Positions 3,239-64,000 of a stretch of 64,000 nt of DNA are shown here, in pieces. Both the position numbers and the translations under genes were made by a program. Under the pieces are notes generated by a model. The model saw only the letters and a list, made by a program, of their open reading frames with translations, had not been told where the DNA came from and made no database searches. The number at the start of each line of letters is the position of its first letter. Within the stretch, counting starts at the first letter, position 1. Origin of the DNA: Mytilus californianus (lineage: Eukaryota); NCBI RefSeq assembly GCF_021869535.1, contig NW_026262701.1:58156001-58220000 (forward strand). Direction: 5' to 3'.

Positions 3239-5513
3239 CAGCGATACCATTACAAAGTCGATATATACAATGGTGCCTATCATTTATCACTATCCTGGGT
3301 TAACAGTTTGAAATAAGCGCTAACAGTTTGTAAAAGGTGACGTCATGTATTGCCTTGGAGCATTCATAAGTAATCAAAATTTGATTAACATGATTAAGCA
3401 GTTTTATAAGAATGCCTAAATGATTATCGTGGTTTCGCAGTTTGAAATGAGCGCTAAAATTACACAACAGTTTTTACAAAGGTGTCTTTCATTTAATATT
3501 GTCTTTGAAAAGAAAACATTTACAGATACATTATTTGATCTTATATATCAGTTGAATATAAAAGAGAGGCAAAAGATACCAAATAAATATTCAAACTCAT
3601 AGGTAAAAATAAATGACAACGCCATGGTAAAAAAAGAATAATTTAAGGACAAATAACAGTATTCAAAACATAACAAAGAAAACTAAAGACTGAGCAATGT
3701 CACTAAAAATCTCCTAGAAAACACTGACAACTTTTCCGTCTTGAGTATAACACACAATCATGAAGACACAGATACCTAACATTATCAGTCAAACATAACC
3801 ACAGAGACAAAGATACCTAATATTATCAGTCGAAGAAAAACTGACAAGGTTATAGCAAAAATACGAAAAACAACGTAGACAAACAACAGTCTAAAACCAC
3901 TACATACAAAAACTAAAGACAGAGCAACACGAAGCAAATCAAACACCAGGGAAAATATCAGGTGCTCCGGATTGGCAAGCAATCATAGTGCAGTTAATGG
4001 AAAGAAATATTTCAGTGAAACATTGTGTGTCGATGCCATAATCCATGACGGTTTTTGGCTATGATATTATAACAGGTGTAATAGGTGACAACATATACGT
4101 TGTCACCTGTTACATAAATGTGTCGAAACAAAGCTACACTGGTAGTTTATGGCAGTTGGGTAAATATCCCTAATGCGCCTCAAAATGAGGACATATTGGA
4201 CATGTTTCTATTTGTAACAAGTGACTGAGCTTAACCATTTGTGTTGATTTGGAAAGTAGAGGAATATAGAATAAATGTGTAAAAACTATGGAGCTATTAA
4301 TGTGTTCAAAGTATTTAATTTTCAAAGAACTTATTGTGTTAAAAAAGGGTTTTTTTACCTCGAGGAGCCGCATCACGAAAGGATTTTCAGGGTATGCTAA
4401 TTTACGGAAAAAGTAATCTCACTTCGTACCCCGAAAATTTAACCACATATGTGAAAATGTCTCAGCTTCGAAACGAGCCATCATACATATCCAAGTTTAC
4501 GATATGGGCTGAGCTACATGAAAAAACGTTACTATTTCCGCCTATGGAAAATCAATTAAGGATATTGGCCCAGTTAACGTTAAAACGGTTGCATGTTTTA
4601 CCACAAACATGCTTTCCATATTAATAAATAAAAAAGCTTGGTGTACGTAAAAAGATTGCAATCAAACGACACAAATATCAAAAGATCTATAATTGAAAAT
4701 ATATTCTTCAACAAAAGAATAGCGTATATGCAATATCCCAGCTCCACCTTCCCTTGACGATATAAACATTTAATGACATTTAACATATGCATGAAAAGAA
4801 TTGACATCAACACTAAATACCATCAATTACAAAATTTAAACAGCATAAAATGATTAACCACTACCACACACAACGACTGATGAAGTTCCTAACTTGGCAT
4901 CAGGACATGGGCCTTTTATAGCTGACTGTGCGGTATGGGTTTTGCACATTGTTGAAGGCCGTACGATGACCTATAGTTGTTAATTTCAGTGTCATTTTGT
5001 CTCTTGTGGAGAGTTGTCTCATTGGCAATCATACCACATATTCTTTTTTATATGAATATGTTTTTGTGTTTAGTAAATTTGTTAAAGCATACCGACTCGC
5101 CTCTCACGTTCAATCTTAACATTCGAATATCAATAATAACATAAGCAAACGTTCAATATAGATCAGCACAACATATGGTTTACTCTACGTTCAAGCACAA
5201 AAATTATCAAGAATATCATATCACATCATGAAAGATACCAGTTCTTGAAATTAAGCTCTGAGTGCATAATATGGTGATATGAAACGGTATTTTCCTTCAC
5301 TCTTACATCTTCAACTGTACTTCAGAATAGATAGTATACAGCGTTATAAAAAGTGAAAGTAGATTTGAATCAGTGAAATGCCTTTACACTCAATCAATTG
5401 GATATTCGGCTTGTACTGTTTGAGCTTTTAGTCGTAGATTCATGCTTTTATTTATTAGTTGTTATATATTGGCTTTGAACAAACATTCAGTAACTGCAAT
5501 CACAACCAAATCT

Positions 5514-6120
5514 AAAATTGAGAATGGAAATGGGGAATGTGTCAAAGAGACAACAACCCGACCATAGAACAGACAACAGCAGAAGGTCACCAACAGGTCT
5601 TCAATGCAGCGAGAAATTCCCGCACCCGGAGGCGTCCTTCAGCTGGCCCCTAAACAAATATATATACTAGTTCAGTGATAATGAACGCCATACTAAACTC
5701 TAAATTGTACACAAGAAACTAAAATTAAAAATAATACAAGACTGACAAAGGCTAGAGTCTCCTGACTTGGGACAGGCGCAAAAATGCGGCGGGGTTAAAC
5801 ATGTTTATGAGATCTCAACCCTCCCCCTATACCTCTAGCCAATGTAGAAAAGTAAACGCATAACAATACGCACATTAAAATTCAGTTCAAGAGAAGTCTG
5901 AGTCTGATGTCAGAAGATGTAACCAAAGAAAAATAAACAAAATGACAATAATACATAAATAACAACAGACTACTAGCAGTTAACTGACATGCCAGCTCCA
6001 GACTTCAATTAAACTGATTGAAAGATTATGTCTTCATCATATGAATATCAAGCACAATCCTTCCCGTTAGGGGTTTAGTATCATACCATCATAACATATA
6101 TGAGAAGAACATAACCCGTG
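5514..6120 (-). mobile_element. Solo 3' end (SECIS plus tail/pseudo-LTR) of the Naiad family
   Basis: Near-identical to 43797-44340 and to the reverse complement of 58370-58973; no RT sequence; absent from the paralogous site near 46290. Confidence 0.85.
6026..6114 (-). promoter_or_regulatory. SECIS element in an ORF-less Naiad 3' fragment
   Basis: Same fold as 44245-44333: AUGA at 6092-6089, AAA at 6076-6074, UGAU at 6050-6047. Confidence 0.8.
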
Positions 6121-7593
6121 TCTGTACCCAAATCATGGTGTGGTAAGGGGAGGATAAAAGATTAATGTATAAATTAGTAAACATAAAACAGACGTAGTGT
6201 ACAGACATCATATACAGACTAAGAAGAGCATTGAATTGTGCAATTCCAAAATATAAGTACGTAATATCGACAGGATTTAGACTCATAAATTTTTATTAAT
6301 GAAAAAGCAATACATATTTTTATTTTTTTTTAAATTTATAAAAAAAAATCAATGTTAGTAACGATAAATTCAATATCCGGTAGTCTTACTACGTTGTTAA
6401 ACTCATATGATTAATTTTATTTACAGGATAAACAATTTTGCATGGATCTTATTTAAATTTACGTTCTTTATAAACAAGAATACCTTTAAAAATAGGATCT
6501 GATATCCCATTTTTATACGAATTCTTAAAGGTACATCTCTAAACCGAATATGTTAATCTTTGAAAGAATTTAGTAAAAGTTTAAAGCAATTGATGGAAAT
6601 GCAACGTACACAGATATATCATGTGTATGTAGATCAGGTTAATTGAAATCTAAAACAACTCTAAAGTACAGTACGTGTGGGTAGGCAAATGCAAAAAACA
6701 TGTAAAACCAAATGTTTTAATAACAGCAAAGTCGACCGTGAAAGGCAAACTTTTCTGTGCAAGATATTTTTTTTTTAAATTATTAAATGATAATAAAAAC
6801 AAAAAAACTGATAATGACTAAAAAAATGAAATAGAAAGAACAGACTTCTGTTTGTGTCGTCGGGCTGTGGCCTCATTGACGTATACTCCCAATATCTATT
6901 TTATGCATATAATATATTACTAGTATATTAAAACGATGCATTAACGCACAAAAATGCATTAATCAAAGACATAGAAATGCTATATTTATATAGTTATATC
7001 TGTTAAATGTTTATGCTACATAGTAAAAGATAAAGGGTTGTAATATTTATCGATGTTGAGTCTGAATAGCCGTCTATTTTTTTTTTACTCCAGTGAGGAA
7101 CTATGAACAATAACGTATATATCAGAATGACTTATTTGAATACAAGAATGGAAATAGATCATAAAGAAGCCTGTTATTTCTTTGAAATCTATTTTAGATA
7201 AAAATTTAAATCCACAATAGCATTTAACGACAAGAGATGATAGGAGTTTAAATCGATCTTCATGTCAACAGAAAAAAACAAAAACTACAATCGACGCGGT
7301 GCATTTCAGCTTTGAGCATTTACACTTAGTTGGTTATAACATCAAGCCATTTAATAACTTCTATTTTACCATCTTGTCTTGATACAGACAATGTTAGAGA
7401 TTACTTGTATATAAAATGTTCAATGATAATAACTAAAATTGGCTTGCACAGATGCGCTCATTGATTGTTATAAATTTATGGTCAATACTTGTATTTGATA
7501 AAAAAAGAAGAATTATAAACATTATTTTGTCAACGGTGTTGTCTGTATTTTTGGGAATTATGGTTTTTGGCTATATCCTTCTTATCTTCTCCC

Positions 7594-15984: not shown

Positions 15985-16703
15985 ATGGCCTACGCAGATA
16001 CACGTTTCTTGTCTCAGGGAGGGATACATCGTACTTTGTAAACAATCGCTCTACAAAATTTCTCTGAAACTGACGTTATCAAGATGCTCGATTTCTTGAT
16101 TGACAACATATTTTTTGTTACGTTTGAAGGACGTGTTTTTGAACAAACAATCGGCATTCCCATGGAAACCAAATGTGCTTCTCTTATTGCCGATTTGTTC
16201 CTTTTTTCATATAAGGCTTACTTCCTGCAGGAACTTCTTAGGAAGAAAAAAAAAGTTAGCACTACATGTATCCTTTAATTTCACTTTCGCTATATAGATG
16301 ATGTTCTTTCACTAGATGATTCAAAATTTTGTGACTATCATGTTGAACGCATCTATCCCATCGAACTTAAGATAAATGATACAACAGATAAGTTAACATG
16401 GTTAAGTCTGCCTCATATCTTGACTTAAATTTAGAAATTGACAATGATGATCGGTTGAAAACAAAACTTACGACAAAAGATATGATTTAAGCATCCCAAT
16501 TGTGAACTTCCCATTTCTATGTAGCAACATTCCAGCAGCACCTGTATACGAAGTATATATCTCCCAGTTGATACGATATTCCAGGGCTTATATTTCCCAT
16601 CATGATTTCCTTGATAGAGGGTTGGTCCCCACAAGGAAGCTATTAAACCAAGAGTTCCAAGTGTTGTAGTTGACGCCGTTCCTTCGTAAATTTTACGGAC
16701 GAC
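15985..16703 (+). mobile_element. Decayed RT fragment of the second PLE family
   Basis: Collinear with 42890-43525; MLDFLIDNIF...GIPM.T.CA.L.ADLF; several stops and frameshifts. Confidence 0.85.
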
Positions 16704-20331: not shown

Positions 20332-20449
20332 TTTGTATACCATCAAATAAGTTGTGTAAATCATTGTGAATTGAAACCTGCTTAAGAATTTGAGGAAAAC
20401 AATTTTATCCTGTTTAACTAAAGTGCCACAATTCAAATTGTATTGAGTT

Positions 20450-20996
20450 ATGACAAAAAAGATATATTCAGAGATGCAAGATAACAACGACATGCATTAT
20501 ATCGATACAACAAGATGTGTCCTCCCGGAACTATCATCATCGGTTATAAGGAAGGAAACACAATCGGAGCCGAATTCTCGTACTAGTTCTTTAAAGAAAA
20601 AGAAGCAGCAGGCACATGAATTTATAAAAAAAGATATTAGTTTTAATCTTCCAATGGACACATTATCAAAATATTCTAATGACTTGACTGTGAATGAAAT
20701 AAAAAAGAAATTTAAAAGACGGTCTTTTGAAATGACATCAGATGGACTTTTAAATGACAGTCTTCCATTTCGTCGTAGACAAAGCAGTGGTTCGTCAGTA
20801 TCATCTCACTATAGATCAAGACTTACAAGTGATGCATCTAATGCAAGCTCATTTTCTTCTTCTTGGAGTTGCTCATCATCATGTTCAACTGGATACTACA
20901 GGGTACCAATTATGGGAGCTCATGGTGTTGGTAAAACAGCATTAGAGAATCGGTTTATGAGCTCGGAGTACATGTCGCATATAGAATCAGATATCG
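20450..20996 (+). CDS. RGK-family small GTPase, coding exon 1 (Ser-rich N-terminal extension plus G1 box)
   Basis: ATG at 20450. Encodes RRRSF and RRRQSS motifs, then RVPIMGAHGVGKT (G1/P-loop). Donor G|GTAAG at 20996/20997, phase 1. Confidence 0.88.
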
Positions 20997-21453
20997 GTAA
21001 GTTATCTGGTTTATCGGATTCAGAAAATAGATTTTGTCCAAACGGAGTTTAACGAACATTTTTTTCTGAAATCAACATCTATATCTTTATATTAATTTAA
21101 ATATTTAAAAAAGACAACTAGATTGTCTAGATCATTAGAGTTACAGTATATAGCACATAAACCACGAATAAAAGAGGATATGGAATTTATGCCAATGAAA
21201 TAGCAACATACGACAGCAATACTAAAAGCCATCGACAGGGCATCAGAGTCATCAATAGTAAACATGTTTAAATGCAATACGTCAATTTTTCAATCGTCTA
21301 GAATCTTTAAAAGTGGTGAAGAAATTTGAGATAAACAATGAAATTTATTCCATTAACACCACATTCTACAAATATTAAAACACATAAATAAAAGATATAC
21401 AATAACCACAGATACAGTTTTACTCATCTAACACTTTTGTTTAACATTTGTAG

Positions 21454-21536
21454 ATGAATTCGACGAAAGAAAACTTACTGTCGTCGTCGACAATGAGGAA
21501 TCTACAATGGAATTTATGGATTTGCTATCCATAGAG
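21454..21536 (+). CDS. RGK-family GTPase, coding exon 2
   Basis: Acceptor TTTGTAG and donor GAG|GTAGG. Continues the frame as DEFDERKLTVVVDNEESTMEFMDLLSIE (switch/G3 region). Confidence 0.88.
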
Positions 21537-21923
21537 GTAGGTATAATAATAATAATTAGTTTTTCTTTTGATTGTTTCTTTTTCTCGTTGCTGATGTATG
21601 TGAAAGTCTCTATGTTGTGTAATTACATGGTAAATACTGATGGGCTGGAAAATATCAATGTTTACTTATCGAATGACAAAAAAAAATGATATGATAGAAA
21701 GAATCACTTAAATATATATTGTTTTTGTCAGGAAATTTAAGGAAAGCACTAAAGACTTGTTTTTACCTTTGAAATTTTAAATACAAATATGCATGAATCT
21801 TTATTTGAAAAAATTCTTAAGTGAAAAAACTGAATTTGTACATAAAATGTTTGTAGATTAATTTCATCAAGAAAGTGAAAAACCAAAATAATTAAACTAA
21901 CATTTATAACTTGTTTCATTTAG

Positions 21924-22101
21924 CACGATGTTTTACCAGCAGATGCCTATGTTGTTGTGTTTTCCGTCCACGAAAGCGATTCTTTCACACTGGCAGAGGG
22001 ATTTCTACAATATCTACGCAATGAACTTGATAGTGACAGACCAATAATATTAGTTGCGAACAAAATAGATTTAGTCAGGAAACGACAAGTCACCAAAGAA
22101 G
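21924..22101 (+). CDS. RGK-family GTPase, coding exon 3
   Basis: Acceptor CATTTAG and donor G|GTAAG. Encodes HDVLPADAYVVVFSVHESDSF...PIILVANKIDLVRKRQVTKE, containing the G4 box NKID. Confidence 0.92.
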
Positions 22102-22361
22102 GTAAGATGTCCTATCATCACAGTGAGTATAATGTGCTTATCATATTAATTTGTTTATATCATTGTTAATTTTTTTATAAATGTAAATGAAATTGTTAAG
22201 AAATATGTACATTTAAAATGCACTTTATATCTATTGCAAAATTTTGAACAAATCTAAAGTCAAGTAAAACAGTATTTAAAGAATTCTCAACTTATATGAT
22301 GGGCTGCTGTTTTTAATACTGATAAACATAATGTTTTAACCATGGTTTATTATGTTTTCAG

Positions 22362-22618
22362 AAGCACGCCAGATTGCAAAAGAATTTGAATGTAAATACA
22401 TCGAAACATCAGCTGTGTTAAACCACAAAGTTGACGAACTACTAGTTGGGTTGTTAAAACAAATAAAACTAAAGCTAAATCCAGATGCCATTCAAAAAGC
22501 AGCTATTTTGACACAGTGCAAAGGGAAAAGGCATTCTCTTTTTAAAAGACTTCTTAGTAAAATCTTAAGACGCACATCAAAAACTTTATCACAGTGTGAA
22601 AATTTGTTTCATCTATGA
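22362..22618 (+). CDS. RGK-family GTPase, coding exon 4 (G5 box, basic amphipathic tail, C-7 motif)
   Basis: Acceptor TTTTCAG. Encodes CKYIETSAVLNHKVDELL (G5), a polybasic tail KGKRHSLFKRLLSKILRR, and ends SQCENLFHL* with Cys seven residues from the end, as in RGK proteins. The four exons sum to 1065 nt in frame with GT-AG introns. Confidence 0.92.
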
Positions 22619-40692: not shown

Positions 40693-42889
40693 TAATTATT
40701 CAATAAAATTCAATGACAGTCTGCATCCATTTTTTTGTCACAGTTATGATCATTAAAATTATTTCCTCAGAAACACTTTTTCTTTAATTTTCATGTACAT
40801 TTATATGTCCTGATCTGCAAAATACAACGCATGAAATTAACATGAAATTAACACATTAACAACAAGGTTCCTGTCAAAACAACAAGGGGTAAACTCAGAT
40901 TTTCTGGATAAAAATAAGTAGTTATTGTCTTACTAGTATTTTCTTAGCAAATAAAGATCTGTTGATCAGTCGCTGTGTGGATATTTTGAATCTACCTTTA
41001 ATTGGTTCAAAATCACATCGTAACTTTGGTCACTGAGCCAATCATTTTAAGTGTTTTGTTATGTGTAAATTTTCATTCTGTCTATAAATTACAATTAGAG
41101 TTATTGCAGAACATAAACCTAATAATATTGTGACAAAAAGCAAAACGAATCTAAAAGACATTATGGTATGTTTTCTAAATTTTACATACATGATTAACAA
41201 TGATTAATATCCAGATTATTTTAATTTATTTTTTTTCCATTTAAAGTCTCAACCTACAAAAAAATTGAAGAGCATTAATGAACAACTAATTGCAAAATTC
41301 TAAAACCATCTATGAATGGGAAAATATACACCCGTTTTGTTTTAATTTTAATTTTTCACCATCTTGTGAAAAATTTCATATCAAAGAAATATGATGTCAA
41401 TACATGAGGTCTAACAACTGGGCTAGTGATTGCCTCGAGGACCAAACGTTCCCCAACATTTGCATCGATGTAGTGGTTTAAAAAAGGCGTATAATTACCA
41501 GACGTCTTAATCTGTACTCGAACAGTTGTGCATGGTACTTTTCTACACATAGCAGTCCTTAGCAGAACAAAAAAAGAACAACCATGTAAACAAGGAGAAA
41601 ATACTACCACCGAAATTCTTTTGTAAAAAGTATGCATAAAAATATCAGTAGATATTCTTCTCAGCATCAAGTACAAATTAATGATATTAAGTATATAATA
41701 ATATTGGGAGAAAATAATTCTTAAAGAAAGAATTTGCTGGTTTTTAGTAGTTCCTCTAAAATAGTGACATAAGACAATGCTATAATTGGTCATTGTCCAA
41801 CAATTTCACAGTTAGATATTTTGTGAAATAACAGATTCTAATATAGGCGATTGTTTTAAACAAGTCATCCCGTCATCATTCAGAAAATACCTTTTTACAT
41901 TTATGACATTTAAATAGAACGTTTCAAATTTATCGTGTTTTATCAGTTGATACCGGCGCTTAAATTACAAAGGTGACTCTTATTTATCATTGCCTTGGAT
42001 CGTACATCAGAAATCAACATTTAATTTTGACATTTTACAAGAATGCTTAATGATTATCGTAGTTTAACAGTTTGAAATTAGCGCTAGAATTACACAGTAA
42101 GTACAAAGGTGACGTTATTTATCATTTCCTCGGATCATACATAAGAAATCAAATTTAACCTGTGACATTTTACAACAATGCTTAACGATTATTGTGGTTT
42201 AACGGTTTGAAATTAGCACTAAAATTTACAGTTTGTACAAAAGTGTCTGTTATTTGAAATACATTGTCTCTGAAAAGACAACATTTATACATACTTTTTA
42301 TAATCTTATACATCAGAAGATTATAAAAGTCACCAACAATCTCTCATCCTGAACAATTTCACATAGCTGACATATAAGAGTAGGGACTTAACTAGAACAG
42401 ATCTGCAACCAAAACAAAATACTATATAATAAAAGAAAAACTGTAAAATATAACAATAAAAAAAACATACTGCCGACGTTTCTGTCTTGATTCTAACGGA
42501 TAACCATAGTTTCAAAAACTATCGAAAATTATCATTTTAAGGAAAAACGACAAGATCATTGCAAAAAAAAAAAAGAAACAACGTAAACAAACAGCAGTCT
42601 ACAAAACACTACAGAGAAAAACGAAAGAAATTAAACACCGGGGTACTTCGAATGGGTAAGTAGATCCTGGTTTGCTGGTTGCAACCATAGTGTTGTTAAT
42701 GGCCAGTTCTACTTCAGTGAAACATTGTGTGTCTCATTTGTCGATGTCATAATCGATGAAAAGAAGACGGTGCTCGGATACGATAACGGGAAAATATTTG
42801 TGGTCACCTGTTGCACAAATTTAGCATGTGTCAGAATAGAACTATCCCAGTAGTTTTACGCAGTTAACATGAAAACTGTTACATAAAAC

Positions 42890-43796
42890 TGTTTTTCTGA
42901 AACTGACATTATCAAGATGCTTGATTTCTTGATTGACAACATATTTGTTACGTTTGGAGGACGTGTTTTTCAACAAAGTGTCGGAATTCCAATGAAAACC
43001 AATTGTGCCCCTCTTCTTGCCGACTTGTTTCCTTATTATTATGAGGCTCACTTCATACAAGAACTTCTTAGGAAGAAAGATAAGAAGTTATCAATATCCT
43101 TTAACTTTACGTTCCGCTATATATATAGATGATGTTCTCTCACTAAATAATACAAAATTTGATGACTATGTTGAACGAATCTATCCCATCGAACTAGAGA
43201 TAAAGGATACTACAGATACAGTTAAGTCTGCCTCATATCTTGACTTACATCTAGAAATTGACAGTGAGGGTCGGTTGAAAACAAAACTTTACGACAGAAG
43301 AGATGATTTCAGCTTCCCAATTGTGAACTTTCCATTTCTATGTAGCAACATTCCAGCAGCGCCTGCATACGGAGTATATATCTCCCAATTGATACGATAT
43401 TCCCGGGCTTGTATTTCCTATCATGATTTCCTTGATAGAGAATTGCTGCTCATAGGGAAGCTATTAAACCAAGAGTACCAAATGGTGAAGTTGAAATCAT
43501 CCCTTCTTAAGTTTTACGGACGCCATCACGAGTTGGTTGACCGTTATGAAATAACCGTTTCACAGATGATATCGGATATGTTCCTTATGTCGTAACTACA
43601 ATACCCTTCCCCTTTCACGAATGAGACCTACAGAATTAGACTATTTACTGGATTTGTAATAACATAAGCTAGACGACGGGTGCCACTTGTGGAGCAGGAT
43701 CTGCTTACCCTTCCGGAGCACCTGAGATCACCCCCAGTTTTTGGTGGGTGCTTAGTCTTTAGTTTTCTATGTTGTGTCATCTGTACTATTATTTGA
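42890..43796 (+). mobile_element. Penelope-like element, second family: RT C-terminal half and 3' tail
   Basis: ORFs 42917-43132 and 43005-43595: QQSVGIPM.TNCAPLLADLF, YIDDVLSL, YLDLHL, AYGVYISQLIRYSRAC. RT is terminal, with no endonuclease after it. Confidence 0.9.
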
Positions 43797-46085
43797 AATT
43801 GAGAATGGAAATGGGGAATGTGTCAAAGAGACAACAACCCGACCATAGAACAGACAACAGCAGAAGGTCACCAACAGGTCTTCAATGCAGTTCAGTGATA
43901 ATGAACGCAATACTAAACTCCAAATTGTACACAAGAAACTAAAATTAAAAATAATACAAGACTAACAAAGGCTAGAGGCTCCTGACTTGGGACAGGCGCA
44001 AAAATGCGGCGATGTTAAACATGTTTATGAGATCTCAACCCTCCCCCTATACCTCTAGCCAATGTAGAAAAGTAAACGCATAACAATACGCACATTAAAA
44101 TTCAGTTCAAGAGAAGTCCGAGTCTGATGTCAGAAGATGTAACCAAAGAAAATAAACAAAATGACAATAATACATAAATAACAACAGACTACTAGCAATT
44201 AACTGACATGCCAGCTCCAGACTTCAATTAAACTGATTGAAAGATTATGTCTTCATCATATGAATATCAGGCACAATCCTTCCCGTTAGGGTTTTAGTAT
44301 CATACCATCATAACATATATGAAAAGAACATAACCCGTGTCATGCCAACAACTGGTTTTTAAATAAATGTGTTTAGTGCCGATGCAAAGACCCTATAAGT
44401 GAATCAATATTAACGCCAAAATATGCAATCTTTAATGACCTGACAACAGTATCGTAACTATATCCCTTCTTAATAAGTCTATTTAAAGGTTTTGTTAGCT
44501 TCAGAGGTGAATACTGACATTTTTGTGCTTTATAAAGAATATTTCCATAAAAAATTGGATGTGAAATACCTGAACGTATAAGAAGTCTGCATGTTGAGCT
44601 ATATTTACGAATGATGTCCTTATACCGATGATAAAATTTAGTAAATGTTTTGACTAGTTTGTGATATCGAAAACCCTGGTGTAATAATTTTTCAGTAATA
44701 CATAAATTTCTCTCGTTAAAATCTAAAACATTGTTACATACACAAGCGAATCGTACAAGTTGAGATATATAAACACCGTAAGATGGTGACAAGGGAACGT
44801 CACCATCTAAAAATGGATAATTAACGATAGGAAATGAAAAATCATCTCTTTTATCATATATTTTAGTATTAAGCTTTCCATTAATGATATAGATATCAAG
44901 ATCGAGGAAAGGGCAGTGGTCATTGTTAGTATTAGCTTTATTTAAAGTAAGTTCAACAGGATAAATTTCTTTAGTATACATACTGAAGTCGTCATTATTG
45001 AGAGCCAAAATATCATCCAAATATCTAAATTATTATTAAATTTGTGTATCAGATGTTGTTTCGATGGGTCTTTGCTGATTTTTGTCATAAATTGTAACTC
45101 ATAGCAATACAAAAAAAGGTCCACAATAAGTGGTGCACAGTTAGTCCCCATTGGAATTCCGATAACCTGACGATAAACGGAATCTCCAAAGCGAACAAAA
45201 ATGTTATCTAGTAAAAATTCAAGGGCATATATAGTATCAAAGCATGTCCAATTGACATAGTTTTTTTGTTTATTGCTACTAAAAAATGACCTAAAAGAGT
45301 TTGAACATATATATTCACATTCTGACTTTTTGAATGCCCATTTAATTAGGTGTGTGAATTCTTTCTTAATGAGAATGTGAGGCAATGTGGTATATAGGGT
45401 AGAAAAATCAAAACTTTGAACAGATTCAAAATCACCAATATATGCATGTAATTTATCAAGTACTTCCAACGAGTTCTTGACACTCCAAAAGTAATTAATT
45501 CCACTATTTTCGAAGGCCTTATTTGAACAATTTATTATCAGGTTTTTGATTGTACCAAGTGTACTGGTAAGAAGAATAGACAATTTAGTAGTGGAACAAT
45601 GGCTTGAAGACGAAATGAATCTATATTTGTAAGGTGTTTTGTGTAGCTTCGGAAGCCAATACATAGTTGGGACTTTCATTGTATTTGGTTCTGCTTGTAA
45701 AGCGGTAGCTTAAAGTTTATGTTTGTTACAGATGTCGTTTTTCTGAAAATGAAGTCAGTTGGAATGTTGGTGAATTGGTGATTTCTTTTTTCAGAACCTC
45801 AATGTAAAATTTACGTCAAACAATAATAATATTATTAGCAGCTTTATCGGCCGGGACAAAAACAAATTCCTTGGCTAGTTCTTTTAGTTTATGTTTGATA
45901 CGAGGAATAGGTTTATTGTGGTTATTGTTAAGAGTAAAATGTTCTTTAAAATGTTGAATACGTATATCAACTATGTTCATTACTGAATTAAAAAAAGAGT
46001 CCAAAGATTTTTTGTCAGCTTTTTCCCGTTTTATCCATTTCAAACAGTAAGTATGGAGTGAGTCGTGGATGATATTACGACACTG
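43797..46085 (-). mobile_element. Second copy of the same Naiad family (RT plus SECIS plus 3' tail), 5'-truncated
   Basis: ORFs 45816-46043, 44942-45679 and 44373-45020 join into a PLE RT (DKAANN, SFDFSTLYTTLPH, GIPMGTNCAP, YLDD) with small frameshifts. Highly similar to 54230-55828 plus 58234-58973. Confidence 0.92.
44245..44333 (-). promoter_or_regulatory. SECIS element (form 2) in the Naiad 3' UTR
   Basis: Minus strand reads UUAUGUUCUUUUCAUAU..AUGAU GGUAUGAU ACU AAA ACCCUAACGGGAAGG AUUGUGCC UGAU..AUAUGAUGAAGACAUAA. This gives AUGA-N12-AA-N25-GA, a fully paired 8-bp helix II, helix I and an apical ministem. Confidence 0.85.
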
Positions 46086-53000: not shown

Positions 53001-55828
53001 GCATTTATATATACATGACATAATCTTTAGCCTGCTTAACGTTTGTTCTGATCTTAAATGATGAAAAATCCAAAGATCTGTTTCAGCAAACTTACATGTC
53101 CCCGTCTTTCCACCAACAATCCGGTAAGGTGTACGTTTAATGGTAGCACATTTTCTTTAAATTTTGAATCTGATATAACTTGAAAAACAAACAGTATTAT
53201 TTATTCACTCACATGAAACACAGCGGGATGCGATATTCAGTACGTAGGTGAAACTGGACGATATTTATCTAAACGCACGCAAGACCACCTGTATCGTTTT
53301 AAAAGACCCAATAAATTCAAAATTATCATTTATCAACATCTTAAAAAGCACAATCATCCTATTGAATATTTAACAGTTCAACCTTTAGAAGTAGTAAATA
53401 AGCAGCCTGGTGAATCTCATTCAAAGTTTGTACGATTACGGAAAATAATTGAATTAAATTGGATTAAAAAATTACAGACAGTCTACTCTCTCGGTCTTAA
53501 TGATAATATCATGGGAATTGGTAATATATCAAGAACCGATTCTGTTAACATTTTGGATATAGTTTCTAAAACTGTTCGTAAAAACCGTTTTCATGGGCGT
53601 AGAAAAAATCGCAATCAAAGAAAATTTCGGACCAACCATACAAATATTTCAGACCTAATTTCTATTTAAAAAATCAACGGCAGACATAATATATTAACCA
53701 AGCTCTGTTCTTTACCTATAAAGAAATGAAATAAAATTTTAGAGGATTGCAACACAATTTCATATTGCAGTCTTAAGTATGAAATCGTTCAAATTATAAT
53801 GGCATATTGTTATTCTAAACTGTTTCCCAAAATTGATCGCCCTGAAGATCACAAAAAACATTTTATTAAAATAAAGTATGTCAATAAAGGTTTTGATTTT
53901 GTAAATATTGCCGGTATTTTTAACGACCATTCTGTTAAAGAACATATTCCTGGATATTTTGATAATACTGAACTCCCTCTTATTTGTTATATTTACAAGA
54001 AATCTACATGGAAATTTGTGTTTAATTATAGCCAAGTCTGTAAAGATGTAAATATCAGTGAAACTACACCTACATGTATGTCATGTAATTGTAGTAATTC
54101 CGAATACACTTATGGCCCCATTTCCCATGTTATTACAGGAGACCTTAACATCGTTCGCGACCGAGAGTTAAAATCATTCCTCAGTAAAGGACCTAACTAT
54201 CACCCCCCCGTTAATTATTAATTGGAATGAGTGTCGTAATATCATAAATCGTGCTTACTGTTTGAAATGGATAAAATGGGAAAAAGCTGACAAAAAATCT
54301 TTGGACTGTTTTTTTAGTTCAGTAATGAATATAGTTGATATACGTAAACAACATTTTAAATAACATTTTACTCTTAACAACAACAATAAAAATCCTATTT
54401 CTCGTATCAAACCTAAACTAAAAGAACTAGCCAAGGAAGATATTTTTGTCCCGGCTGATAAAGCTGCTTATAATATCATTATAGTTTGACGTAAATTTTA
54501 CATTGAAGTTCTGCAAAAGGAAATCACGACTTCACCAACATTCCAACTGACTTCATTTTCAGAAAACGATATATGTAACAAATATAAACTATTAGCTACT
54601 TCTTTACAAGCAGAACCAAATACAATGACAGTCCAAACTTTGTACTGGCTTCCGAAGCTACACAAATCACCTTCCAAATATAGATTTATTTCGTCTTCAA
54701 GTCATTGTTCCACTACTAAATTGTTTATTCAACTTATAAAAACACTTACTACAATCAAAAACCTGATAATAAATTGTTCAAATAAGGCCTTTGAAAATAG
54801 TAGAATTAATTTCTTTTGGAGTGTCAAAAACTCGTTGGAAGTACTTGATAAATTGCATGCATATTGGTGATTTTAAATCTGTTCAAAGTTTTGATTTTCT
54901 ACCTTATAAACCACTTTGCCTCAAATTCTTATTAAGAAAAAATTCACACACCTAAATTAAAAGGGCATTTAAAAAGTAGGAATGCGAATACATATGTTCA
55001 AACTCTTTTAGGTCATTGTTTAGTAGCAACAAACAAAAGAACTATGTCAATTGGACATGCTTTGATACTATATCTGCCCTTGAAATTTTACTTGATATCA
55101 CTTTTGTTTACTTTGGAGATTCCGTATATCGTCAAGTTATCGGAATTCCAATGGGGATTAACTGTGCACCACTTATTGTGGACCTGTTTTTGTATTGTTA
55201 TGAGTTACAATTTATGACTAAAATCAGCAAAGACCCATCGAAACAACATCTGATACAAAAATTTAACAATACTTTTAGATATTTGGATGATATATTGGCT
55301 CTCAATAATGAAGACTTCAGTATGTTTACTAAAGAAATTTATTCTGTTGAACTTACTATAAATAAAGCTAATACTAACAATGACCACTGTCCTTTCCTCG
55401 ATCTTGATATCTATATCGTTAACAGGAAGCTTAATACAAAATTTATAATAAAATATGATTTTTCATTATCTATCGTTAATTCTCCATTTTTAGATGGTGA
55501 AGTTTCCTTGTCACCATCTTATGGTGTTTATATATCTCAACTTGTATGATTCGCTCGTGTATGTAACAACGTATTAGATTTTAGCGAGAGAAATTTATGT
55601 ATTACTGAAAAATTATTACACCAGGGTTTTCGATATCATAAACTAGTCAAAACATTTACTAAATTTTATCATCGGTATAAGGACATCATTCGTAAATTTA
55701 ACTCAACATGCAGACATCTTATACGTTCGGGTATTTCACATCCAATCTTTTATGGTAATATTCTTTACAAAGCACAAAAATGTCAGTATTCACCTCAAAA
55801 GCTAACAAAACCTTTAAACAGACTTATT

Positions 55829-58233
55829 AGACCTTTTCAACAATTGTCTACACCTACAGTTGAGAACGACTACGACAGGTGAGATACGAAGGGTCGTCTC
55901 AAAAATGAAATTTAAAAAAAAATTATTGATCGCATATGATTATTTTGATTGCCAATGAGAACTATCCAACACGACGTGTATAAAAGCATTTGTTGTGTAC
56001 CGTACCTTTTTTATTTATTAAGTATTTGCTTATCAAAATTAAAATTATTTATGAATTGACTATGCGGAAAAGGAAGGACTTCAATGTTTCATTTCTTTTA
56101 GACGTCGAGTTGGAAAATGGAAAAAAAAACAAAAAAAAAAAAAACAAACCTGTACTTTGAAGTAGATGTTTAATTAATCATTGCTTTATGTCTGACGACT
56201 AGGGCGGTACATTTTTTTACCATGTCTGTTAATTTTGGCTTCGGATGCCTCAACGTACTTTATTTCTTTTTAATTTACCAATTTAATGTTCAACTTGAAA
56301 GCGATATTGAGCGACAAAGCAATTTACATTTTGTGTCTTTCTCTTTAAATTATCCGGCTTACTGTGCCGTCGCTAGACCTTCGGCTCCGGCAACCAAATG
56401 CCGTAGCTGACCAGGTGAGAGGAGGACGCTAATTAATTGCCTCGCCCTAAAGAACCTCATTCGCGAGAATCAGCTGGAGTACAATTAATTCACAACAAAA
56501 TAGATACCAAGATTTTGAAAGGCCCTTGGTGTCTCTTCTGATTCAAATTCAGATTCAAATCATATTCTTTTTATTTTTTTTGTTTACTTGCTATTTTTAT
56601 GTTTTCCGTAATAGGAAATAAAATCACACAATGCAACATATAAAACAGATATTCAGATTGACACATGGTCTTGGTTAAGGACACCATCGCCAACCCCCAA
56701 AAAGGGGGAAAAAGGAAAAAAAGTTACTATCTTTGATTGAATAAACTGGAAATAAATATGAGAGCGAAGCATAATGTCAAAATACTAAATTGTAAACAAA
56801 AAATTCTATCGTGACAAAAATCTTACCAATTGTAATGACCTACTTGTTCAGGAATTGTTTCATGCGTATAAAACATGCGGTGGCGTTTTACTAGTATAAT
56901 TGGATCTTAACCTCCCCCATGTATGGTCAGAGATGAAAGTCAAAAACGATTATACACGCTTCTCACAAAACACACGAAGGTCATTTTCGGAAACAGGGAA
57001 AATAATCTAAGACAAAGGGACACGTTCTGTTGTCTTTCGGGACACGGACAACCTGTAACGGTCAATCAGTCCAAAAAGACACTGCAATGACAACAAGCTC
57101 TATTGAGATATAAATATCATACGCATCACTGAAGAGACAATACTTGTCAAAATGCGCATGTGGCGCGGACTTTAAACCAATAGGCGTTTACCCCTCCAAT
57201 AATTAAATGTATACAACAAGTGACTTGAAGATCGGTTGAGAAACAAAAACTCTAGTGGACGGACGGACAGTCCTGTTATAATATAATAATGTGATAAGTG
57301 ATTGCCAATGAGACAACTATCCACCAAAGTTGTAATGAAGTTAATGTAAGCAATTATGGGCAACCATACGGTCTTTAACAATGAAAAAAATCCATACCGT
57401 ATAGTCGGCTATAAAAGGCCCCGACATGAAAAATATGAAACAATTCAATTGAAAAAACTAACGGTCTAATCTATATCAAAACAATTTAAGAAAAACAAAT
57501 ATGACAGACATGAACCAACAACAACCACTGAACTACAGGCTCCTGACTTGGGACACGCAAATAAAGAATGTGGCAGGGTTAAACATTTTTGTGAGTGTTC
57601 AACCCTCCCCTAACTTGGGACAATGTTGTAACAGCACAACATAAGAAACAACTATAAATATGTTACTTCCACAAATTTCAAAAATAGCATTTCAAAAACA
57701 ATAAAATATTCTGATCCCAAATTTGATGAAAAAAAACATATTGTGGTCAAGCAGATAAAAAAAAATATTTTGAGTCCAGATTTTCCCCATATCTTATAGT
57801 GTTAAATTTTGAAACAAAATTAAGATTGATAGCGTCGAAAACTAAAAAAATACTCTGACTCAGACAAAAAACTATAACCCCCCTTAAAGTTAAATGGTTG
57901 CTCCCTAAATAATCACATAAAATTTACCAAGATAAAAACTTAAAAAGACAGATGACAATGTGAAATAATTGCAGTAATTATTTCCTTGAAAGTTTAATAA
58001 ATTCAACGTAAAATGTTGTATAAATACATGTTATTATAATATTTAACAAAAGTGAAAAGTATAATTCATATTTGTTTGAAATATGTTCTTTCGTCAAAAT
58101 AGTGCAAAATCGATAAATCGAAGTTGTAAACGTAAAACTATTCATGATGATTTTTAATTTTGAGACGACCCCTACATTTTACCTGTAAACTGTAGGTGTC
58201 ATTAGTCGGTGTCGAGAGTTGTTGAAAAGGTCT
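55829..58233. mobile_element. Non-autonomous DNA transposon with imperfect ~85-bp TIRs nested in the Naiad RT
   Basis: Starts AGACCTTTTCAACAA and ends TTGTTGAAAAGGTCT, with further shared blocks ACACCTACAGTT and GGGTCGTCTCAAAA. It splits the Naiad sequence GACTTATTAAGAAGG seen intact in the minus copy. TSD is ATT (or TATTA). Confidence 0.75.
57123..57166 (+). ncRNA. Hammerhead motif with inactivating G12A and C17G changes (repeated at 60368-60411 and 63670-63713)
   Basis: GCAUCA CUGAAGA GAC AAUACUU GUC AAAA UGCGCA UG UGGCGC; same family as 27526-27569. Confidence 0.65.
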
Positions 58234-58374
58234 ATTAAGGAGGGATATAGTAACGATACTGTTGTCAGGTCATTAAAGATTGCATATTTTGGCTTTAATA
58301 TTGATTCACTTATAGGGTCTTTGCATCGGAATTAAACACATTTATTCTAAACCCAGTTGTTGGCATGACACGGT

Positions 58375-58463
58375 TTATGTTCTTCTCATATATTTTATGA
58401 CAGTATAATACTAAACCCCTAACAGGATGGATTGTGCCTGATATTCATATGATGAAGACATAA
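58375..58463 (+). promoter_or_regulatory. SECIS element, copy downstream of the RT stop of the + strand Naiad
   Basis: ATGA 58397-58400, AAA 58413-58415, TGAT 58439-58442; one mismatch at the base of helix II. Confidence 0.78.
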
Positions 58464-59481
58464 TCTTTCAATCAGTTAAACTGAGGTCTTCAGCTGGCAT
58501 GTCAGTAACTGCTAGTAGTCTGTTGTTATTTATGTATTATTGTCATTTTGTTTATTTTCTTTTGTTTCCTATTCTGACATCGGTCTCGGACTTCTCTTAT
58601 ACTGAGTTTTACTATTCGTACTGTTGTTCGTTTGGTTTTTCTACATTGGCTAGAGGTATAGGGGGAGGGTTGAGATCTCAAAAAACATGTTTAACCCGCC
58701 GCACTTTTGCGCCTGTCCCAAGTCAGGAGCCTCTGCCCTTTGTAAGTCTTGTATCATTTTTAATTCTAGTTTCCTGTGTATAATTTGGAGTTTAGTATGA
58801 CGTCCATTATCACTGAACTAGTATACATATTTGTTAAGGGGCCAGCTGAAGGACGCCTCCGGGTGCGGGAATTTCTTGCTGCATTGAAGACCCATTGGTG
58901 GCCTTCGGCTGTTGTCTGCTCTACGATCGATTTGTTGTCTCTTTGACACATTCCCCATTTCCATTCTCAATGTTATCAGTAAGCTTAACTCTAATCTTTT
59001 CTACTCAGTTTTAAGATATTAAAGAGTCAGTATGAAAATCAAAACGATTATTTTTTTCTATAAAAATGAGTTATGCGCATATAGGAATCAGATGTACATT
59101 TAGAAGTAACGTTTGTTGGAGTCATTAAACAATGTTGTATGGGAAGTTGTGGAAATGAGAACGAAGAGACCAGCACATTAACTGATTTCAAAGATATTGG
59201 TACGGCCAGAAAGCCACCTTTTAATTGTAGCGAACAAAAGACACAGATCAATAATAAAATTTAACAAGATTTCTTATACTAAAGTTTACAAGAAGTATTT
59301 AAAATAAAAGAAATGTCAAGTTGTCTGTCAAAATAAATGTCTGATCTTTTGTCTGTTCTTTATCCGGAAGTCATTTCGGGAATCCACGCAGAATATTATG
59401 TGCAATAGGTCACAATCTAGTATGATATTGTTTGTAAATAAAAATGTTAATCCAACTGATGAGAATATTAATGTCAATCGA

Positions 59482-59528
59482 TGTCTATGTCTATGTCTAT
59501 GTCTATTTCTGTGTCTATGTCTATGTCT
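59482..59528. repeat. (TATGTC)n microsatellite (also at about 62783-62830)
   Basis: Seen directly. Confidence 0.85.
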
Positions 59529-59562
59529 GAAAGTTTAACGTTAGTGTCTGTATATTTATAGT

Positions 59563-60238
59563 TGTCACGGAAATCTCTAGAACACTGTAGAAAGGAAACT
59601 ACTAGAAAACTTTATAACGGAAACTTCTAGAACAGTGTTGACGTTTAAATTACATATCTTTTATATTTATGATCATTCTAAAACGTTATGTAAGTAAAAT
59701 AGCAAGTTCTAATCATTCCATCAGTCTCTGTGATTGTTCCAGTGATTTTTAAACTGCACAGTTACAATATAATTTTGTAAACAAGTACAAATTATGTAAA
59801 CATATTATTAGGCAACACAAAACAAATTAGGCCAACTGAATAAATATGATAGTTACAATATCATAAAACCTCCCCCCTTAAAAAAAAAGTTTGGGTGTAA
59901 CAGAACTTTTCACGAACAATATATACAAAATTACAGAATATGTATACAGTGTTTTATTAAGATCTAGATAAAGCATCTGCTATTACATTATCTTTACCTT
60001 TAATATGTTTTACAATAACATCATATTCCTGTAACAATAAACTCCACCTAGTCAACCTCTGGTTCTTGTTTCTCATTTTATGTATGAAGGTGAGAGGATT
60101 ATGATCAGTATAAACAAAAATGTGATACATAGTGGGATTTAGATATACATCAAAATGTTGAAGTGCAGACAACAGTGTTAAACACTTTTTTTCAATAATT
60201 GAATACTTTTTCTGATGTTTATCTAATTTCTTAGAAAA
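59563..60238 (-). mobile_element. Gypsy-type LTR retrotransposon 3' end (RNase H C-terminus, PPT, 306-bp LTR), Gmr1-like layout
   Basis: FSKKLDKHQKKYS.IEK.CL...YTDHNPL...RWSLLLQEY...HIKGKDNVIADALSRS* (stop at 59957). PPT AAGGGGGGAGG at about 59869-59879. LTR 59868-59563 ends CCGTGACA. Confidence 0.8.
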
Positions 60239-61718
60239 CAGGGAAAGGAATCTAAGACAAATGGACACGTTCTGTTGTCTTTCGGGACACGGACAACCTA
60301 TAACGGTCAATAAGTCCAAAAAGACACTGCAATAACAACAAGCTCTGTTGAGATATAAATATCATACGCATCACTGAAGAGACAATACTTGTCAAAATGC
60401 GCATGTGGCGCGGACTTGTTCATTCAGGAAACGCATCATCTTTAACATGGTATCTTGAAGCGGAGTAGTCCCACGTAACTAAATTATCGATGTTGCCTTT
60501 TCCGTTTACCTTTAAACCAATAGGCGTTTACCCCTCTAAAAATTAAATGTGTACAACAAGTGACGTGAAGATCGGTTGAGAAACACAAACTCTAGCGGAC
60601 GGACGGACAATCCTGTTCCAAAATAATAATGTGATAAGTGATTGCCAATGAGACAACTATCCACCAAAGATGTAATGAAGTGAATGTCAGCAATTATAGG
60701 CAACCGTACGGCCTTTAACAATGAAAAAACCCCATACCGTATAGTCGGCTATAAAAGGCCCCGACATGAAAAATATGAAACAATTCAATTGAGAAACTAA
60801 CGGCCTAATCTATATCAAAACAATTTAAGAAAAACAAATATGACAGACATGAACAAACTACAAACAACTTAACTACAGGCTCCTGACTTGGGACAAGCAA
60901 ATAAAGAATGTGGCAGGGTTAAACATTTGTGTGAGTGCTCAACCCTCCCTTAACTTGGAACAATGGTTTAACAGCACAACATAAGAACCAACTATAAATA
61001 TGTTCCTTCTACAAATATCAAAAATAGCATTTCAAAAACGATAAAATATTCTGATCCCAAATTTGATGATAAAAAATATTGTGGTCAAGCAGATGAAAAA
61101 AAAATATTTTGAATCCAGATTTTCCTCATACCTTATAGTGTGAAATTTTGAAAAAAAAGTAGATTGATAGCGTCGAAAAACTAAAAAAAAAATTCTGACT
61201 CAGACAAAACACCATTACCCCCCCCCCCTAAAGTTAAATGGTTGCTCCCTAAATAATCACATAAAATTTAACAAGATACAAACTTAAAAAGGCAGATGAA
61301 AATGTGAAATAATTGCAGTAATTATTTCCTTGAAAGTTTAATAAATTCAACGTAAAATGTTGTATAAATACATGATATTACAATATTAAACAAAAGTGAA
61401 AAGTATAATTCATATTTGTTGGAAATATGTTCTTTCGTCAACATAGTACAAAATCGATAAATCAAAGTTGTCAACGTAAAACTATTCATGATGATTTTTA
61501 ATTTTGAGACGACCCCTTCATTTTACCTGTAAACTGTAGGTGTCATTAGTCGGTGTCGCGAGTTGTTGAAAAGGTCTATTAAGGAGGGATATAGGCACGA
61601 TACTGTTGTCAGGTCATTTAAGATTGTATATTTTGGTTTTAATATTGATTTACTTTAAGGGTCTTTGCATCGGAATTAAACACATTTATTCTTAAACCAG
61701 TTGTTGGCATGACACGGG

Positions 61719-61807
61719 TTATGTTCTTCTCATATATTTTATGACGGTATAAAACTAAACCCCTAACAGGAGGGATTGTGCCTGATATTTACATGATGAA
61801 GACATAA
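61719..61807 (+). promoter_or_regulatory. SECIS element, copy in tandem unit 2
   Basis: ATGA 61741-61744, AAA 61757-61759, CCT-AAC-AGG ministem, TGAT 61783-61786. Confidence 0.78.
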
Positions 61808-62864
61808 TCTTTCAATCAGTTTAATTGAGGTCTGGAGCTGGCATGTCAGTAGCTGCTAGTAGTCTGTTGTTATTTATGTATTATTTTCATTTTGGTTATT
61901 TTCTTTTGTTTCCTATTCTGACATCGGAATCGGACTTCTCTTATACTGAGTTCTACTATGCGTACTGTTGTGCGTTTGGTTTTTCTACATTGGCATGTAG
62001 GGGGAGGGTTGAGATCTCAAAAAACATGTTTAACCTCGCTGCATTTTTGCGCCTGTCCCAAGTCAGGAGCCTCTGGCCTTTGTTAGTCTTGTATCATTTT
62101 TAATTTTAGTTTCCTGTGTATAATTTGGAGTTTAGTATGACGTCCATTATCACTGAACTAGTATACATATTTGTTTAGGGGCCAGCTGAAGGACGTCTCC
62201 GGGTGTGGGAATTTCTCGCTGGATTAAAGACCCATTGGTGGCCTTCGGCTGTTGTCTGCTCTATGGTCGAGTTGTTGTCTCTTTGACACATTCCCAATTT
62301 TCATTCTCAATTTGATCAGTAAGCTTAACTCTAATCTTTTCTATTCAGTTTTTAGATATTATGTGTCAGGATGAAGATCAAAACGATTATGTTTTCTATA
62401 AAAATAAGTTATGCGCATATAGGAATCAGATGTACATTTAGTAGTAACGTTTGTTGGAGTCATTAAACAATGTAGTATGAGAAGTTGTGGAAATGAGAAC
62501 GAAGAGACTGATTTCAAAGATATTGGTACGGCCAGAAAGCCACCTTTTAATTGTAGCGAACAAAAGACACAAATGAATAATAAAATTTAACAAGATTTCT
62601 TATACTTAAGTTTACAAGAACTATTAAAAAAAAAAGAAACGTCTGATCTTTTGTCCTTTCTTTATCAGGAAGACTTCTCGTGAATCCACGCAGAATATTA
62701 CGTCCAATAGGTCACAATCTAGTATGATATTGTTTGTAAATAAAAATGTCAATCCAACTGATGAGAATATTAAAGTCAATCGATGTCTATGTCTATGTCT
62801 ATGTCTATGTCTGTGCCTATATCTATGTCTGAAAGTTTAACGTTAGTATCTGTATGTATATAGT

Positions 62865-63541
62865 TGTCACGGAAATCTCTAGATCACTGTAGAAAGGAAA
62901 CTACTAGAAAACTTTATAACAGAAACTTCTAGATTAGTGTTGACGTTTAGATTACATATACTTTATATTTATGATCATTCTCAAACGTTATGTAAGTAAA
63001 ATAGAAATTTCTAATCATTCCATCAGTCTCTATGATTGTTCCAGTGATTTCTAGAGTACACAGTTACAATATAATCATGTAAACAAGTACAAATTATGTA
63101 AACATATTATTAGGCCACACAAAACAAATTAGGCCAACTGAATAAATATGATAGTTACAATATCATAAAACCTCCCCCTTAAAAAAAGTTTGAGTGTAAC
63201 AAAAACTTTTCACGAACAATATATACAACATTACAGATTATGTATACAGTGTTTTATTAAGATCTAGATAAAGCATCTGCTATTACATTATATTTACCTT
63301 CAATACGTTTTACTATAACATCATATTCCTGTAACAATAAACTCCACCTAGTCAATATCTTGTTCTTGTTTCTCATTTTATGTATGAAGGGGAGAGGTTT
63401 ATGGTCAGTATAAACAAGAATAGGATGCATAGTGGGATTTAGATACACATCAAAATGTTGAAGTGCAGACAACAGTGTAAAACACTCTTTTTCAATTATA
63501 GTTGAATACTTTTTCTGATGTTTATCTAATTTCTTAGAAAA
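62865..63541 (-). mobile_element. Second tandem copy of the Gypsy 3' end
   Basis: RNase H stop at 63257, PPT about 63171-63180, LTR 63170-62865. Confidence 0.8.
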
Positions 63542-64000
63542 CATGGAAAGGAATCTAAGACAAAGGGACACGTTCTGTTGTCTTTCGGGACACGGAAAAC
63601 CTATAACGGTCAATCAGTCCAAAAGACTCTGCAATGACAACAAGCTCTGTTGAGATATAAATATCATACGCATCACTGAAGAGACAATACTTGTCAAAAT
63701 GCGCTTGTGGCGCGGACTTGGAAAAATGGTGCCGTTGATGTTTCCAGTTCATTCAGGAAACACATCATCTTTAACATGGTATCTTGAAGCGGAGTAGTCC
63801 ATCGTAACTAAATTATCGATGTAGCCTTTTCCGTTGACCTTTAAACCAATAGGCGTTTACCCCTCCCAAAATTAAATGTGTACAACAAGAGACGTGAAGA
63901 TCGGTTGAGAAACACAAACTCTAGCGGACGGACGGACAGTCATGTTACAATATAATAATGTGATAAGTGATTGCCAATGAGACAACTATCCACCGAAGTT

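Follow-up and report, generated by a model that had tools for sequence, protein, structure and literature searches.

Two copies of one retroelement family that carry TGA at the same in-frame codon raise the question of whether the codon is a lesion of decaying copies or was carried, and read through, by the element from which they descend. In the window (the whole 64-kb stretch of Mytilus californianus DNA analysed here), the minus-strand copy reads DKAANNIIIV-TGA-RKFYIEVLKKEI, with the TGA at 45816-45818, and the plus-strand copy, read directly from the sequence, gives DKAAYNIIIV-TGA-RKFYIEVLQKEI, with the TGA at 54487-54489. Both are located eight codons past the motif DKA (DKA+8), at a site named in the published description of Naiad elements (PMC8557442), and are putative selenocysteine (Sec) codons. 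The original prediction of a shared stop was thus correct, as was its view of the column as Cys-type: among the best 150 matches in the protein library, 84 of the 124 that align at DK have Cys.

The two copies and their element

The minus copy (43796..46084, minus strand) is a 5'-truncated Naiad copy that retains the end of the linker, DKA, the reverse transcriptase (RT; two frameshifts and one private TAA) and the 3' UTR. It is 98% identical to the library protein P0249 over residues 1-216, and the true TAA stop of its RT frame (44373..44375, minus strand) falls at the residue where P0249 also ends. The plus copy is longer and more decayed: its body (~53127..55829, plus strand) is split from its 3' end (58233..58975, plus strand; last RT codons, TAA at 58333 and 3' UTR) by an unrelated insertion of 2403 nt (55830..58232) that has terminal inverted repeats (GACCTTTTCAAC...) and is flanked by a target duplication of 5 bp, TATTA. 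The family is further represented by a short 3'-only insertion (5513..6122, minus strand; SECIS-like hairpin at 6038-6102), 97% identical to the UTR of the minus copy and with flanks of its own, and by a second copy of the plus-copy 3' end (61577..62313, plus strand; SECIS-like sequence at 61731-61795). The latter lies inside a tandem duplication of ~3.5 kb (57170-60669 and 60510-63998, 91.6% identical) that doubles the Naiad 3' end together with its SECIS. Truncation at the 5' end is seen at 46084 and at 6122, and a pseudo-LTR was not found at the 5' end of the plus copy. All copies of the family in the window are themselves dead.

The two are members of a Naiad (Penelope-like) retroelement family from a mussel. 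The plus copy has, in order, an N-terminal GIY-YIG endonuclease, a KR-rich block, CxC, GxKY, DKA and RT, a layout that is diagnostic of Naiads (Craig et al. 2021, PMC8557442) and recurs in an intact relative (L001, 52% identical). By motif assignment, the endonuclease upstream of the RT (53127-53666) contains YVGETG with downstream R, H, E and N-type residues. The linker features comprise the KR-rich HGRRKNRNQRKFR, CxC in the form SCNCS (54084-54092, plus strand, TGT at both codons in the window family; CxC is found in P0004 too), GxKF/Y (KGPKY in P0004, KGPNY in the decayed plus copy) and the change of DKG to DKA (PADKAA in both copies). Just a degraded C...C segment of the CX2-5CxxC finger is left in the plus copy; the finger is present in L001, and tandem arrays are found in L001 and three similar loci (L001-L004). 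In a Foldseek comparison of the predicted L001 structure (pLDDT 87.6), telomerases fill the first 15 ranks (best E=1e-10), so that by this model, rather than by the broken window copies, the RT is predicted to be most telomerase-like. Pfam at E<=0.01 gave no match for the endonuclease (P0002), linker or RT pieces, a sequence profile search of the PDB gave a single irrelevant match, and no hammerhead was found within the window at the Rfam cut-off.

The two copies are 91.7% identical across 1583 nt. The copies were evidently inserted separately, as had been proposed: a 5' truncation cuts the minus copy off at 46084, and the sequences that follow the 3' ends, past 43796 (minus copy) and 58975 (plus copy), are unrelated. 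Judged against the intact P0004 and P0249 and the Cys relative P0003, all stops and frameshifts other than the DKA+8 TGA are private to one copy; the duplication as DNA of a single dead copy was looked for, and neither flanks nor lesions are common to the two. The example chosen earlier stands: the TGA at 55547 of the plus copy corresponds to CGA in the minus copy. This TGA, at an Arg column, and another at 53727, at a Leu column, are ordinary lesions of the plus copy. CpG decay of an Arg codon, which suits 55547, was rejected for DKA+8, a column that is Cys in relatives. Estimated roughly from the 60 transversions counted over 1598 columns, the chance of independent TGY to TGA changes in both copies is ~9e-5 at the DKA+8 codon and ~1e-3 at any of the ~14 Cys codons of the shared stretch, which agrees with the earlier argument that a shared stop speaks against random decay.

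Other sequences surround the Naiad copies. A second, more distant Naiad-like family is represented by RT fragments at 42887-43595 and ~15882-16712 (both plus strand; 44-51% identical to P0003), and the minus copy ends ~200 nt downstream of the first of these; a search of the supplement of PMC8557442 for three of its motifs found none, and the family is therefore not tied to Naiad_Mgal. An old degraded RT-end fragment (6413-6598, minus strand, 41% identical to P0003) is located near the short 3' insertion, and remnants of an RNase H of LTR retrotransposon type (Pfam RT_RNaseH, E=2e-20) are found once in each half of the tandem duplication (59957-60361 and 63257-63613, both minus strand). The window also includes a four-exon gene for an RGK (Rad/Gem/Rem) GTPase (20447-22618, plus strand), whose relatives are an expanded set in Mytilus; 10/11 matches of the exon at 20447-21049 are Mytilus proteins, with best identities of 78-93% per exon.

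Proteins and relatives at the DKA+8 column

Database proteins display an end or a late start at the column rather than the codon itself, and in this form the stop is a property of the family. P0004 stops at the column after 326 aa, and among the 15 listed members of its cluster (92% identical; 54 members), 11 reach DKA and 11/11 end exactly there, with no TGY seen in the family; the representative itself ends at the stop, so that a read-through member would fall in another cluster, and no read-through cluster more than 81% identical to the family appeared in the searches with the DKA region or the RT. Past the column, the P0249 cluster (98% identical; 133 members) has an intact 435-aa RT frame from its first Met, and 0 of the 15 members listed extends back over the column, although a late start alone may also reflect the choice of the gene caller or the end of a contig. 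The upstream and downstream clusters are joined via the window copies, not by one intact contig. These proteins support the conclusion that the family master carried the TGA, as the original prediction had suggested.

More distant proteins have the same break. Fifteen longer homologues of the DKA region comprise ten that end at the residue before the column, four with Cys and one with Trp. The best 150 of 949 library matches comprise 84 with Cys, 22 that end at the column, six with Trp, 12 others and 26 unaligned at DK; 52 of this best 150 end inside the query, 24 of them at position 90 and at most four at every other position. In the best 120 of 629 RT matches, 102 start past the column, six span it with Cys (one of them chimeric-looking), seven span it with Trp and five are unclear. 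Trp thus occurs at the column in six proteins among the best 150 and in seven among 117 RT matches. M. edulis and M. californianus are among the named sources of members of a related family (the P0255 cluster, 71%).

At the DNA level, relatives were obtained by a profile search of genome_contigs as 20 Penelope-like RT loci (L001-L020), none of which is a copy of the window family. These loci lie inside records of bacterial genomes or MAGs and are probably eukaryotic, presumably animal, contamination of bacterial assemblies. In the tandem copies of L001-L004 the DKA+8 codon is TGA in 7/7 seen, and TGA also occupies both endonuclease columns; the 923-codon frame of L001 has five TGA and no TAA or TAG. 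The first cysteine of CxC is TGA in 6/6 copies seen in L001-L004 (e.g. the 3446 region of L001), and a fifth TGA occupies an unconserved linker position in 8/8 copies; neither site is among the UGA sites given in the available text of PMC8557442. TGA at the first CxC cysteine was also linked with the proteins P0407, P0408 and P0415. Predicted proteins of a 3000-member cluster are interrupted ahead of three columns, namely pre-GIY-YIG, CxC and DKA+8. Four Cys columns are Trp in P0415, and at these columns members of its own cluster break. In the L001 model the DKA+8 residue lies at the end of a strand (469-477) that continues as a helix (478-491), where the model is confident.

SECIS-like hairpins and the reading of the TGA

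In eukaryotes, a SECIS directs the insertion of Sec at UGA. The minus copy has a SECIS-like hairpin (AUGA...AAA...UGAU; 44257..44321, minus strand) ~50 nt past the stop, with a score of 29.8 bits for Rfam SECIS_1 (E=0.0011) and a fold z of -2.29, and the plus copy has another (58387..58451, plus strand; 27.9 bits, E=0.037). Both lie ~50 nt past the true TAA stop of their copy, and both are full-length SECIS_1 matches in E-value mode that score below the gathering cut-off of 35 bits; a scan of the whole window at the curated Rfam cut-off gave no match, and the SECIS-like sequence at 61731-61795 had none at E<=5. Core and stem are conserved, with compensatory changes relative to related elements; the stem is 91% paired, with 6/13 pairs changed on both sides (34-53% in slid controls), a count made on seven hairpins from about three families with a structure drawn from the same sequences. 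Our own pattern scan of the window recovered 2/4 family hairpins and no other site. The 64 kb contain four 3' ends of the family with a SECIS-like sequence, three of them independent. Among ten of the relatives' loci scanned, L001-L004 have SECIS matches of 42-43 bits, above the Rfam cut-off, L006 has 39.3 and L005 29.2 bits, and no match at E<=1 was found in two loci with TGY at DKA+8 (L007 and L009) or in L016 and L019.

The plus copy has TGA at two further columns that are Cys in relatives, one ahead of GIY-YIG (53181..53183, plus strand) and one at the first Cys of a CCHH finger (53214..53216, plus strand), both putative Sec codons and both U in Naiad_Mmer and Naiad_Scon as printed (PMC8557442). 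With 54487/45816, TGA is therefore found at all three columns named for the clam Naiads, for which the chance by decay is at most ~7e-6. Deiodinases with UGA and SECIS are reported from Mytilus coruscus (PMC8481496), and the host group thus has Sec machinery.

Very probably, the TGA at DKA+8 is a Sec codon inherited from an active Naiad master with three UGAs and a SECIS. By analogy with established eukaryotic Sec recoding, Sec would be inserted at DKA+8, where selenium may have a function. The master would have had one long frame for a GIY-YIG endonuclease, a linker and a telomerase-like RT, with three UGAs at conserved Cys columns, and the SECIS in its 3' UTR would recruit the host Sec machinery, with Sec at all three UGAs and a single endonuclease-RT protein as the product. 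An RT joined to the endonuclease would require read-through, because the whole RT lies past the third UGA. New copies, made by target-primed reverse transcription, would inherit the UGA and the SECIS and would often be 5'-truncated.

We consider it quite improbable that the master had a real stop, as a dead or split element, as one mobilised in trans with the help of a Cys-type element, or as one whose RT re-initiates at the Met 46 codons downstream. That Met does open a 435-aa RT frame, Cys-type relatives 70-81% identical exist, and another Naiad-like family is present in the window; yet a real stop leaves unexplained the three TGAs at Cys columns, the SECIS, the frames open on both sides and the recurrence of the same stop in families just 38-62% identical. 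Less probable still is read-through of another kind, by a leaky stop or a near-cognate tRNA that inserts Trp or Cys, with the hairpin incidental. The Trp found at the column in relatives (6 of the best 150; 7/117), and at four Cys columns in P0415, would fit such decoding, but the members of the P0415 cluster break at those columns and its Trp is for that reason probably the product of gene calling with table 4, in which TGA is translated as Trp, or of decay from TGA to TGG; moreover, three serial leaky stops would yield very little protein, and SECIS matches track the TGA loci, not the two TGY loci tested. Decay, by parallel TGY to TGA changes or by DNA duplication of one dead copy, is scarcely credible: both copies have decayed and the plus copy has its lesion TGAs at 53727 and 55547, but the flanks are unrelated, one copy is 5'-truncated, the lesions are private, the chance is ~1e-3 at best and 11/11 listed family proteins stop at the column.

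Putative Sec families, Cys families and comparison with published Naiads

In RT trees the window family, L001 and most of the late-starting matches form one group apart from Cys outgroups (support 99/98; 100/100), and P0003, P0005, P0008, P0383, P0260 and P0270, which have Cys at DKA+8, are nested inside this TGA group. A topology that holds all Cys rows together was rejected (AU p=1.8e-172) in a test of 19 chosen rows, the grouping having been named after an earlier tree was seen. The same mixing of TGA and Cys families appears in a tree of the region ahead of the column, built from 53/81 selected rows, duplicates within a cluster and three rows that were chimeric or short having been dropped. 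The published clam and spider sequences stand outside these trees and were compared by eye. L007, which has TGT at DKA+8 and an endonuclease motif similar to that of Mytilus Naiads, falls outside the TGA group.

Close relatives of the window family, 70-81% identical, have Cys at DKA+8, and Sec is therefore not required at this residue. P0003, P0005 and P0270 begin just past CxC, and P0006 has Trp at CxC; judged from these proteins, Sec may have moved to CxC rather than been lost in the P0003, P0005 and P0270 families. The 102 of the best 120 of 629 RT relatives that start past the column are signs of a broad stop-bearing group. It is possible, and we propose it only tentatively, that Sec-coding Naiads are one broad and old group, with mussel families and high-copy families of other genomes among its members, in which Sec and Cys switch repeatedly between Cys columns (some families having regained Cys at DKA+8 and others having Sec at the first cysteine of CxC), and that the short SECIS-bearing 3' ends scattered through the mussel genome may be a source of SECIS for host genes.

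An apparent pseudogene stop becomes a probable recoded codon, and families of this kind can be mistaken for dead ones and are split by gene callers. Closely related Sec and Cys families offer a natural comparison for the role of selenium in a retroelement protein and for selenium supply as a limit on transposition.

Selenoprotein Naiads and the DKA+8 UGA site have been known since 2021 (PMC8557442), where recoding rests on prediction and SECIS elements were predicted with SECISearch3. The clam Naiads have UGA at the Cys before GIY-YIG, at the first CCHH Cys and at the Cys eight past DKA, together with a SECIS. The window family, from a mytilid mussel instead of clams, has in common with Naiad_Mmer and Naiad_Scon the order of domains, the three UGA sites and a SECIS past the stop, and its endonuclease (DITUKTNSIIYSLTUNTAGCDIQYVGETG) is, by eye, close to theirs as printed. 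It differs in that the SECIS begins ~50 nt past the stop, versus 1-21 bp in 3/4 published families, and has an apical mini-stem, whereas type I is reported; the UGA in RT6 of Naiad_Scon is absent. The Naiads of the spider Stegodyphus (Naiad_Sdum and Naiad_Smim), for which PMC8557442 infers a separate origin, likewise combine a SECIS with UGA at DKA+8 and at the Cys that precedes GIY-YIG, but their other UGA is in the CX2-5CxxC finger, the first CCHH position is Cys and the IFD is reduced.

Naiad_Mgal and Naiad_Mcor (PMC8557442) are of the same element type and come from the same host genus as the window family; as printed, they have Cys at both endonuclease columns, where the window family has TGA, and are not marked as selenoproteins. 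Five short DNA motifs of the window family were not found in the supplement of PMC8557442, in which a positive control was found, and among the titles listed from 2021 on, subscription papers being mostly outside this scope, no Sec-coding transposons beyond those of PMC8557442 were found. Relative to the published elements, what is new is the mussel family with putative Sec codons, which adds to the hosts of selenoprotein retrotransposons a group known in print for Cys-form Naiads, together with the signs of a broad stop-bearing group, the CxC TGA in relatives and the Cys families nested in the TGA group.
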